Below, one piece after another: positions 17,422 to 18,584 of a stretch of 64,000 nt of DNA. Under the pieces are notes generated by a model that was not told the origin of the DNA, made no database searches, and saw only the letters and a program-made list of their open reading frames with translations. A program made the position numbers and the translations under genes. Position 1 is the first letter of the stretch; every line of letters starts with the position of its first letter. Location: the NCBI GenBank assembly GCA_964636355.1, contig CAZWRG010000006.1, positions 660-64,659 of the forward strand, written 5' to 3'. The stretch is from an uncultured Candidatus Saccharibacteria bacterium (GTDB taxonomy: Bacteria; Patescibacteriota; Saccharimonadia; Saccharimonadales; JAGQNK01).

Positions 17422-18294
17422 GTGGCTAATACGATTACTTTAAAGCGGCGGATTGGATCTGTTAAAAATACCAAACAGATCACTAAAGCGATGGAGCTTG
17501 TGGCGGCTAGTAAGATGCGCCGGGCTCAAGAATTCGCGCAGCGCTCCAGGCATTATCGGATTGCAGCTTATTCCCTGTTGACTCGATTGAGTCGAATTAC
17601 AGAAGTTGATGACCATCCGCTATTTACCAAACGGCCTGTCAAGCGGCGATTGTACGTGGTAGTTACCAGCAATCAGGGTTTGGCCGGACCTTATGACTCT
17701 AATATCATTAAGCTGATGACTCGTTCAATTAAGGCAGATCGGGACAGCAAAATTGCTTCAAATGTAATTGTGATCGGTAAAAAAGGTGCTAATTTCCTGA
17801 GAAATATTGAGGGCGTCAATTTGATCGGTGTTTATACCGACATTAGCGATCAGCCAACCGCCAATGAACTTCGGCCACTGCTCAATACAATTACAGAGCA
17901 ATATGGCGACGGCGAAGTTGATGAGGTTAAATTAATCTACACCGAGTTTAAATCAAATCTGGTGCAAATTGCTTCTTCGCTGCAGGTTTTGCCGGCTAGT
18001 TTTGAGGAAACCGAGGAAGACATGAGCGACATCGGCAACGTTGCCTTTGAGCCGTCACCGCAAGCTGTTTTAGATAATGTGGCTATGCGTTTGATTGAAG
18101 TTCAGATTTGGCAGGCAATCTTAGAAAGCTTTGCCTCGGAGCATTCAATGCGCATGATGGCCATGAAAAACGCCACCGATAACGCATCAGACCTGATAGA
18201 TGATTTAACATTGGCATTTAATACCGCTCGCCAGGCGGCAATCACCCAGGAACTTGCTGAAATAACCGGCGGCGTGGAGGCATTATCATCATGA
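17422..18294 (+). CDS. atpG: F0F1 ATP synthase subunit gamma
   Basis: A GTG at 17422 lies 7 nt after AGGAGG and gives VANTITLKRRIGSVKNTKQITKAMELVAASK, a typical gamma N-terminus. The track ORF starts upstream inside the heptamer repeat. Confidence 0.9.
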   Translation: MANTITLKRRIGSVKNTKQITKAMELVAASKMRRAQEFAQRSRHYRIAAYSLLTRLSRITEVDDHPLFTKRPVKRRLYVVVTSNQGLAGPYDSNIIKLMTRSIKADRDSKIASNVIVIGKKGANFLRNIEGVNLIGVYTDISDQPTANELRPLLNTITEQYGDGEVDEVKLIYTEFKSNLVQIASSLQVLPASFEETEEDMSDIGNVAFEPSPQAVLDNVAMRLIEVQIWQAILESFASEHSMRMMAMKNATDNASDLIDDLTLAFNTARQAAITQELAEITGGVEALSS

Positions 18295-18584
18295 GAAGCC
18301 CTGAAATAAATGACTGGGGTCATCTGGAGAGTCTTGCACGAGGAGGTTCAACAAGAGCTCAGGATTCTAAAGAAGATGGTGAGCCAGTTCATGTTATGAC
18401 TGTGCCAGGACCATTGCCTCCTGCTCCAGAGCGATCAACTCTGCACAGCACTGGCAGCACCGAAAGCTTAGAGTCTAGTGGACAATTTAGACAGATCGAA
18501 GGAGCTGACCCAGGAATTGCGGTCGACCCGTCAGGATTAGACTCAGAATTTTATGAACCAAGAATAACCACGGAGGAAAAATAA
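18291..18584 (+). CDS. Orphan small protein (97 aa, P/S/E-rich, probably disordered) inserted between atpG and atpD
   Basis: ATGA overlap with the atpG stop and TAATG overlap with the atpD start. Codon choice (AGA/AGG/GGA-rich) looks different from the flanking atp genes by eye. Confidence 0.5.

Follow-up and report, generated by a model that had tools for sequence, protein, structure and literature searches.

The window analysed here, a stretch of 64,000 nucleotides (nt) of contig CAZWRG010000006.1 from an uncultured Candidatus Saccharibacteria bacterium (assembly GCA_964636355.1, positions 660 to 64,659), contains a complete F-type ATP synthase operon on its + strand (13296-20983), and within this operon an open reading frame (ORF) of 97 codons, here called orf97, is located between atpG and atpD, the genes coding for the F1 gamma and beta subunits. 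To judge from its sequence, orf97 is very probably a real gene. It appears to be a divergent representative of a hitherto undescribed family, limited to Saccharimonadales and placed between atpG and atpD, in which purifying selection on the peptide maintains a C-terminal motif of about 30 residues. Few gene orders in bacteria are as conserved as that of F1 (alpha, gamma, beta, epsilon), and the comparison of related loci points to the alpha-gamma, gamma-beta and beta-epsilon junctions as hot spots for unrelated, fast-evolving small genes in Saccharimonadales. The microprotein family is a new one, and the literature searched contains neither a description of such junction hot spots nor a report of extra genes in Saccharibacteria atp operons.

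A coupled small gene at the atpG-atpD junction

A check of the sequence agrees with the preliminary description of this DNA, according to which a 97-codon ORF occupies the atpG-atpD junction exactly (18291-18584). The ATG of orf97 (18291-18293) overlaps the TGA of atpG (18292-18294) in an ATGA, its TAA (18582-18584) overlaps the ATG of atpD (18584-18586) in a TAATG, and its last codons supply the Shine-Dalgarno sequence of atpD, a GGAGG (18572-18576) situated 7 nt before the atpD ATG; the junction details given in the preliminary description are exact. A second GGAGG (18276-18280), inside the last atpG codons and 10 nt before the orf97 ATG, serves orf97 itself. Promoter-like or terminator-like sites were not found within 18200-18700. 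In the atpG-atpD gap of 289 nt, the longest open frame of the + strand covers 285 nt and that of the - strand 159 nt; the probability that 96 sense codons stay open by chance in one given frame is about 0.004.

The product had been described as rich in P, S, E and G and without a hydrophobic core, and so it is: 75% of the residues are disorder-promoting and 21% are hydrophobic, with a grand average of hydropathy (GRAVY) of -0.85. It is also acidic, with an isoelectric point (pI) of 4.5 and a net charge of -10. AlphaFold2 returned a low-confidence coil, both from the single sequence (predicted local distance difference test score, pLDDT, 61.7) and from a 13-sequence alignment (pLDDT 58.6), with a predicted template modelling score (pTM) of 0.15-0.16; codons 1-64 are predicted to encode coil, essentially no secondary structure is predicted in the whole product, and the protein is predicted to be disordered. 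Regarding codon choice, the preliminary description had listed AGA, AGG, GGA and CCA as atypical. This is true of AGA (four of six Arg codons, compared with 15% in long genes), GGA (six of ten Gly codons, compared with 16%) and CCA (six of ten Pro codons, compared with 35%), but AGG is never an in-frame codon in orf97. The GC content at third codon positions (GC3) is 0.32, whereas the atp genes have 0.43-0.52. With 0.11 bits per codon the coding score is weak and ranks among the lowest 1-2% of true-gene windows and the highest ~4% of off-frame ones; the orf97 frame scores best of the six, with the +1 frame nearly equal. As a whole, the junctions, the openness of the frame and the motif described below support a real, same-strand, tightly coupled gene for a disordered small protein within the atp operon.

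Homologs of orf97 and the C-terminal motif

A word-indexed search of 5.8 billion proteins gave one match to orf97, 99% identical and called on two independent Logan contigs, derived from SRR34148156 and SRR34068986, with the same gene order. When phmmer was run against 1.84 billion representatives, the 99% strain copy was recovered together with five long repeat proteins, which were rejected as relatives because their multi-stretch matches are spurious. The patterns of orf97 had no match in the JGI metagenome contigs scanned, and no match to orf97 or to the family profile was obtained in Pfam, NCBIfam, PADLOC, PHROGs or the PDB. The orphan status given to orf97 in the preliminary description has nevertheless been overturned by homologs occupying the same slot in related loci, namely L083, L045, L049 and L163/L164. 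For example, phmmer aligned orf97 over residues 69-96 (E=1.8e-4) with a 61-codon ORF, beginning MSERRTFQQAVTEGDPGLVGVDPSGNDPEFGVDYRSRITNEE, of the metagenome contig L083, whose gamma subunit is 81% identical to that of the window. All-against-all clustering groups orf97 with L083, L045 and L049, and the motif is also present in the database protein P0018, whose gene on L163/L164 is the fourth and last ORF of the atpG-atpD gap. A hidden Markov model (HMM) built from L083, L045, L049 and P0018, leaving the window out, placed orf97 as the top non-member (E=9e-5) in a target set of 16,289 segments in six frames, taken from 82 loci and from the entire window.

The motif of orf97, G75-I-A-V-D79-P-S-G-L-D84-S-E86-F87, fits the pattern G-hydrophobic-x-[GV]-x-D-x4-D-x-E-F in register, with core columns G75, D79, S81, G82, D84, E86 and F87 (the invariant columns as computed with L083, L045 and L049). 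In the family as a whole the motif can be written hydrophobic-x-x-A-V ... G-hydrophobic-x-G-x-D-x4-D-x-E-F, and orf97 has QFRQIE where its relatives show [FY]-x-x-A-V. A second branch, with the consensus [FY]-x-x-A-V-x-x-G-x-x-G-L-V-G-S-D-I-F-P-D-D-G-E-F, comprises members in L003, L004, L005, L016, L020, L021 and L047, to which later clustering and profiles added L098 and L116. The L083 ORF matches the nine-member profile of this GSDIFPDDGEF branch at 2.6e-7. The link of orf97 to the same branch is transitive, via L083, because the broad profile alone is not significant; a 12-member HMM places orf97 about 9th of some 16,000 non-members.

The family has been found in about 14 species, and in 11 of them the member lies directly before atpD. 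It spans lineages with gamma subunits only 55-60% identical. On the gamma tree every species of the window's clade carries the family and a separate group is located around L045, a clustering that fits vertical inheritance with rapid divergence and loss. The few members with a source name are all just 'hypothetical protein'. A Shine-Dalgarno sequence (AAGGAG/GGAGG) is likewise contained in the last codons of the equivalent ORFs of 10 relatives, and the endings ...E-G-E/E-E-K are common to many gap ORFs because the atpD Shine-Dalgarno is read in frame. A duplicated 5' end of atpD, considered in view of a beta segment resembling the family IVGSDIFPDDGEF, was rejected, as atpD N-termini obtained no higher scores with the family profiles than shuffled sequences did.

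Selection on the peptide and variation among strains

Between orf97 and the L083 ORF, 19 of 29 residues are identical, while the proportion of synonymous differences (pS) is ~1.0 and that of nonsynonymous differences (pN) is 0.23; in the blocks compared, synonymous changes are present at 11 of the 15 identical residues. Such residue identity at saturated synonymous sites indicates that selection acts on the peptide. Residues 1-64 have no detectable homolog outside the strain group and alone would qualify as a species-level orphan. The N-terminal parts of the family members are in fact mutually unrelated, and only the C-terminal residues align. When the DNA of the window is aligned with that of L083 and L003, only the junctions align, ATGA and TAATG being kept in ORFs of 97, 61 and 59 codons, respectively.

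Another example of this organisation is provided by L045 and P0018, which share 27 of 29 C-terminal residues and nothing upstream of an abrupt breakpoint. At the nucleotide level, the microprotein genes of L045 and L163 have in common a 3'-terminal island of 95 nt (L045 2594-2686; L163 2043-2135), about 92% identical, upstream of which the similarity stops abruptly and the sequences are unrelated; atpD and atpG of these loci are 82% and 75% identical. In the last 29 codons of the microprotein, pS is 0.24, versus 0.62 in atpD, where no 29-codon window falls below 0.36. This pattern suggests that the N-terminal part and the ORFs upstream of it are exchanged as modules.

Among three strains, orf97 shows 0-1 synonymous differences and one nonsynonymous difference, too few for a strain-level ratio of nonsynonymous to synonymous rates (dN/dS). 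The pS of the flanking atpG and atpD is 0.10 (L001) and 0.16 (L002), the deficit in orf97 having binomial P values of 6e-4 and 7e-5, and the zone free of single-nucleotide polymorphisms (SNPs) coincides almost exactly with orf97. The low pS in the last 29 codons of the L045/L163 pair is an independent instance of this feature. The preliminary description had also set out the opposite case, in which the ORF is just an expanded neutral spacer open by chance. That scenario is contradicted by the strains themselves (1-2 differences in 294 nt, against 10-16% at neighbouring synonymous sites), and also by the conservation of the motif at the amino acid level and the systematic + strand openness of 71 other gap loci. 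Since saturation of the synonymous sites is already reached in the next most distant relatives and RNA structure was not found, a recent common ancestry of the segment is tentatively preferred to a lasting constraint on the nucleotides of orf97; it would have come about by a sweep specific to this gene or by spread through recombination.

Small genes at the F1 junctions of Saccharimonadales

A search with the gamma subunit returned only genomes of Saccharibacteria/Saccharimonadales and metagenome contigs, the nearest with 81-82% identity. The atpG-atpD gap was surveyed in 134 distinct related loci, from which the N-containing locus L042 was excluded. It measures at least 150 nt in 71 of the 134 loci (53%) and reaches 1.2 kb. 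In a measurement of all operon junctions across the loci retrieved with gamma, gaps longer than 150 nt make up a fraction of 0.35 at the atpA-atpG junction, 0.59 at atpG-atpD and 0.51 at atpD-atpC, versus 0.02-0.11 at the tight Fo and delta junctions (atpB-atpE, atpE-atpF, atpF-atpH and atpH-atpA). The atpG-atpD gaps are nearly always occupied by ORFs of the same strand: in the 71 gap loci the longest + strand frame spans a median of 97% of the gap, versus 48% for the - strand, the + strand frame is the longer one in 65, and a start codon overlaps the atpG stop in 44. These gap ORFs range from 30 to 310 codons, and of the 62 scanned, 60 are without a Pfam or NCBIfam family and one is a Nudix hydrolase; PADLOC and PHROGs gave essentially no gap-ORF matches besides the Nudix protein. 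Their all-against-all comparison yielded many small families, most of them limited to one junction. In homologous pairs pN is well below pS, and the amino acid divergence is 4-8 times that of gamma; in the last gap ORF of L004/L005, for instance, dN/dS is about 0.14, versus 0.03 for atpG. The rule that atpG is directly followed by atpD, invoked in the preliminary description, thus fails in Saccharimonadales because their F1 junctions regularly hold real fast-evolving genes, with extra junction ORFs in about half of the species sampled, and the orf97 junction is unremarkable within its own lineage.

Some individual junctions deserve mention. The Nudix hydrolase is encoded between atpG and atpD of L081 (6879-7328), the 1.75-kb atpG-atpD gap of L042 (6870-8623) holds three ORFs, and in L030 atpC follows atpD at a distance of 3.8 kb. 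In six species the last ORF before atpD belongs to another recurrent family, with products of about 76-96 residues and the pattern YVPYE ... AY-x-x-GY (Table 1); in L016 and L098 this ORF is placed after a member of the orf97 family.

Proposed role of orf97 and alternative explanations

In the explanation proposed here, orf97 shares a single transcription unit with the F1 genes and is tied to them through the termination-reinitiation overlaps ATGA and TAATG. With a Shine-Dalgarno sequence before each start and these overlaps, the protein should be made whenever gamma and beta are. Its C-terminal motif would be a short docking peptide acting in trans, and the partner may be the F1 sector, on which the orf97 product would act as an accessory protein, in assembly or in regulation; among candidate partners F1 is the most economical because gene position and coupled translation tie the synthesis of the orf97 product to that of beta. 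Taken in full, that is, a translated microprotein gene whose family motif serves for docking, with F1 as the likeliest partner, the proposal is judged about equally apt to prove right or wrong, although the greater part of it is shown and only docking and partner are inferred. An association of the orf97 product with F1 is, by itself, tentative and somewhat doubtful, and the extension to F1-junction small proteins in general, as lineage-specific F1 subunits or regulators functionally analogous to IF1, zeta or AtpTheta, is considered unlikely.

Several points weigh against this proposal. The expression of orf97 is predicted from its sequence, its codons are weakly adapted (0.11 bits per codon) and its GC3 is atypical. 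Its family membership rests on the closer subfamily and on position, given that the broad 9- and 12-member profiles stay below significance on orf97 (hhalign P=0.069; HMM E=14), and in 3 of the 14 species the family member and atpD are not adjacent, an additional ORF being placed between them. The link with F1 is purely positional, and the same slot houses at least a dozen unrelated families, including the Nudix hydrolase. The near-nil synonymous variation among strains is left without explanation by the model. Finally, the presence of small acidic ORFs beside smpB, nusG, rplK and rplA suggests a general insertion of small genes into core operons rather than a role specific to ATP synthase.

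This last point leads to the alternative that survives best, which is a real possibility though a rather unlikely one. According to it, the junction ORFs are real, fast-evolving genes unrelated to ATP synthase, involved for example in host or phage interaction, which profit from a strongly and constitutively expressed cluster that tolerates insertions. The many unrelated families in the same slots, 60 of 62 without a known family and one a Nudix hydrolase, would be expected in such a case, as would the similar small acidic low-GC3 ORFs next to smpB, nusG, rplK and rplA in the window. The combination of rapid turnover between species with almost nil diversity within species, and the conserved 95-nt island of L045/L163 abutting unrelated sequence, look like recurrent sweeps or recombinational exchange, a pattern typical of genes under conflict. 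However, the families are largely junction-specific, the place of the orf97 family before atpD is kept across the lineages with gamma 55-60% identical, and the expansion concerns the F1 junctions only and not the Fo or delta junctions. Moreover, no matches were obtained among defence (PADLOC), phage (PHROGs, phage genomes and IMG/VR) or plasmid sequences, either with profiles or by tblastn of the phage and plasmid collections and IMG/VR, and a known phage, plasmid or defence origin of orf97 was rejected.

The remaining alternatives deny the peptide a function in trans. The frame might be kept open just to carry ribosomes from atpG to atpD, the peptide itself being functionless. The maintenance of the ATGA and TAATG junctions in the window, L083 and L003 despite differing length and sequence agrees with this idea, and so do residues 1-64, which are unconserved, disordered and encoded by atypical codons; but the C-terminal motif is conserved in amino acids across saturated synonymous sites and is detectable by HMM across genera, pN is below pS in other gap ORFs too, and about half of the species have no such ORF, so that the probability left to a mere spacer is small.

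Alternatively, orf97 could code for a cis-acting leader or arrest peptide, whose motif would act in the exit tunnel and tune the delivery of ribosomes to the atpD start, and hence the amount of beta relative to gamma. A variable N-terminus, a conserved C-terminal segment of ~25 residues, the overlap with the next start and a Shine-Dalgarno sequence in the last codons are all features of such a peptide, and acidic residues, Pro and Gly abound in the motif. On the other hand, the motif ends at a variable distance from the stop, about 6 to 38 codons, a further ORF precedes atpD in 3 of 14 species, and atpD has a strong Shine-Dalgarno of its own. Nor is there RNA structure in its favour, since 0 conserved pairs were predicted in nine regions upstream of atpD and the local fold has a z-score of +0.45. 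The leader peptide is therefore hardly probable.

Finally, a non-coding element, either an expanded spacer or a structured or regulatory RNA open by chance, is extremely improbable: the weak coding score, nearly matched by the +1 frame, and a nucleotide conservation among strains above that of neighbouring synonymous sites would agree with it, but the frame is unlikely to be open by chance (P about 0.004), the + strand frame is the longer one in 65 of 71 equivalent gaps, nucleotide conservation is absent at greater distance while the peptide motif is conserved, and a structured RNA was rejected, as Rfam has no match in 13000-21500 (a lone chance snoRNA match lies elsewhere), the folding energy equals that of shuffles and the nine members compared share no conserved pairs.

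Biological significance

Saccharimonadales are epibiotic bacteria with reduced energy metabolism, and energy conservation in the Candidate Phyla Radiation is poorly understood. If any of the junction proteins binds F1, it would represent a new class of ATP synthase accessory factor in this radiation. Were the F1-junction proteins indeed regulators or subunits, they would control the assembly of the enzyme or the choice between ATP synthesis and the hydrolysis that generates proton-motive force, and their rapid turnover and within-species sweeps would reflect the adaptation of energy coupling to host or niche. If none binds F1, the junctions would offer a natural system for the birth, exchange and loss of small genes in an essential coupled operon. 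There is also a lesson of method, because an apparent orphan among billions of sequences gained homologs through the direct comparison of positional orthologs.

Other features of the operon and of the window

The features of the operon and the small ORFs mentioned in the text are collected in Table 1. The 290-residue atpG gene is called identically on the Logan contig L001. Between atpA and atpG, where 35% of the relatives have ORFs, the window has a non-coding spacer with a perfect 4.3-copy TCATGTC tandem repeat (17374-17403) just 5' of the atpG Shine-Dalgarno; this spacer is SNP-poor like orf97, with 1 SNP in 118 nt with respect to strain L001. Between atpD and atpC, a junction with ORFs in about half of the related species and several junction-specific families, the window carries a second wedged ORF, orf119. 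This ORF has an ATG that overlaps the stop of atpD, and it runs 8 nt into the start of atpC; its coding score of 0.27 is one that real genes also show, its product is acidic (pI 4.5) and without a Pfam family, and its homolog was found on strain contig L001 only, with 94% amino acid identity and a pN/pS of about 0.33. In comparison with L001 (5080-5511), atpC shows 13% nucleotide differences and a pS of 0.52, versus 2-3% and a pS of about 0.1 in the remaining operon, and the L001 allele looks like one imported by recombination.

The preliminary description had pointed out a recurring pattern of tiny ORFs behind core genes. The ORFs listed there exist, have no Pfam match and sit between core genes, but the coordinates had to be corrected in one case, as 56259-56681 holds two 69-codon ORFs and not one. 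The four small ORFs of the minus strand have pI values of 4.4-5.0 and GC3 of 0.29-0.39. Ribosomal protein L1 (55212-56204, - strand) has 330 residues and an L1 domain from about residue 132, which leaves a K/A/E-rich N-terminal extension of about 130 residues.

Table 1. Positions of the operon features, of the small ORFs of the window and of the YVPYE-family ORFs in related loci (positions refer to the window unless a locus is given).
Feature	Position	Strand	Remarks
Promoter-like site	13296-13324	+	start of F-type ATP synthase operon
atpI-like gene	13335-13691	+	PF09527; non-core, in atp operon
atpB, atpE, atpF, atpH		+	between atpI-like gene and atpA
atpA	15732-17303	+	followed by 118-nt spacer (17304-17421), then atpG
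atpG (F1 gamma)	17422-18294	+	GTG start; PF00231, E=1e-91; 290 residues
orf97	18291-18584	+	97 codons; whole atpG-atpD junction
orf97, codons 1-64	18291-18482	+	P/S/E/G-rich, lineage-specific N-terminal extension
orf97, codons 65-96	18483-18578	+	conserved family motif
GGAGG Shine-Dalgarno of atpD	18572-18576	+	within last orf97 codons (T-E-E)
atpD (F1 beta)	18584-19975	+	PF00006 and PF02874
orf119	19975-20334	+	119 codons; wedged between atpD and atpC
atpC (F1 epsilon)	20327-20758	+	PF02823
Terminator-like hairpin	20955-20983		3' of atpC
Small ORF	6489-6683	-	64 codons; behind smpB
Two tandem small ORFs	56259-56468, 56472-56681	-	69 + 69 codons; between rplK and rplA
Small ORF	57325-57552	-	75 codons; between nusG and rplK
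YVPYE-family ORF	L006 7301-7591		
YVPYE-family ORF	L016 7180-7470		
YVPYE-family ORF	L017 7265-7540		
YVPYE-family ORF	L073 7211-7441		
YVPYE-family ORF	L085 2407-2673		
YVPYE-family ORF	L098 1869-2126		

Comparison with known systems

Several small regulators of F1 are partly or wholly disordered when free, act via a short segment and have arisen independently in different lineages (PMC9317440). The orf97 product resembles IF1, zeta, AtpTheta and the C-terminal domain of epsilon in that it is small, predicted to be disordered and lineage-restricted, with a single short segment conserved and a gene located amid those of F1. Membership in the IF1, zeta or AtpTheta families was not detected, with no Pfam or NCBIfam match at E<=1 and no related PDB chain (whether these libraries hold an AtpTheta model was not checked). 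The inhibitory segments of IF1 and zeta are helix-forming, whereas for the acidic motif of orf97, with its many Gly and Pro residues, no helix is predicted; neither IF1 nor zeta is known to be encoded between gamma and beta.

Besides these F1 regulators, the closest parallels to orf97 in its putative function are microprotein subunits encoded in the operon of their own complex, such as CydX in cytochrome bd and CcoM in the cbb3 oxidase (PMC10433244); orf97 fits the family definition of none of them. The likeness lies in genes of fewer than 100 codons, co-transcribed and tightly packed with those of a large bioenergetic complex and often missed by annotation. CydX and CcoM are single-helix membrane proteins, in contrast with orf97, which has no hydrophobic segment and evolves much faster. 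AtpI and AtpZ are likewise encoded by non-core genes within the atp operon. However, the AtpI-like protein is a membrane protein with a Pfam family, encoded at the 5' end of the operon, while the orf97 product is soluble and acidic and its gene lies between those of gamma and beta; it has no match to PF09527 or PF03899 and, with its GRAVY of -0.85, no hydrophobicity of the transmembrane type.

As for the arrest peptides SecM, MifM and TnaC, orf97 is like them in that its N-terminus varies, its C-terminal segment is conserved and its ORF ends at the ribosome-binding site of the next gene, but its family is without fixed spacing between motif and start, a conserved mRNA hairpin or a sensing domain. 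Finally, orf97 is similar to taxonomically restricted or de novo small genes, which are invisible to standard searches, use atypical codons, encode disordered products and turn over rapidly; unlike species-level orphans, orf97 has homologs in the same slot across Saccharimonadales lineages.

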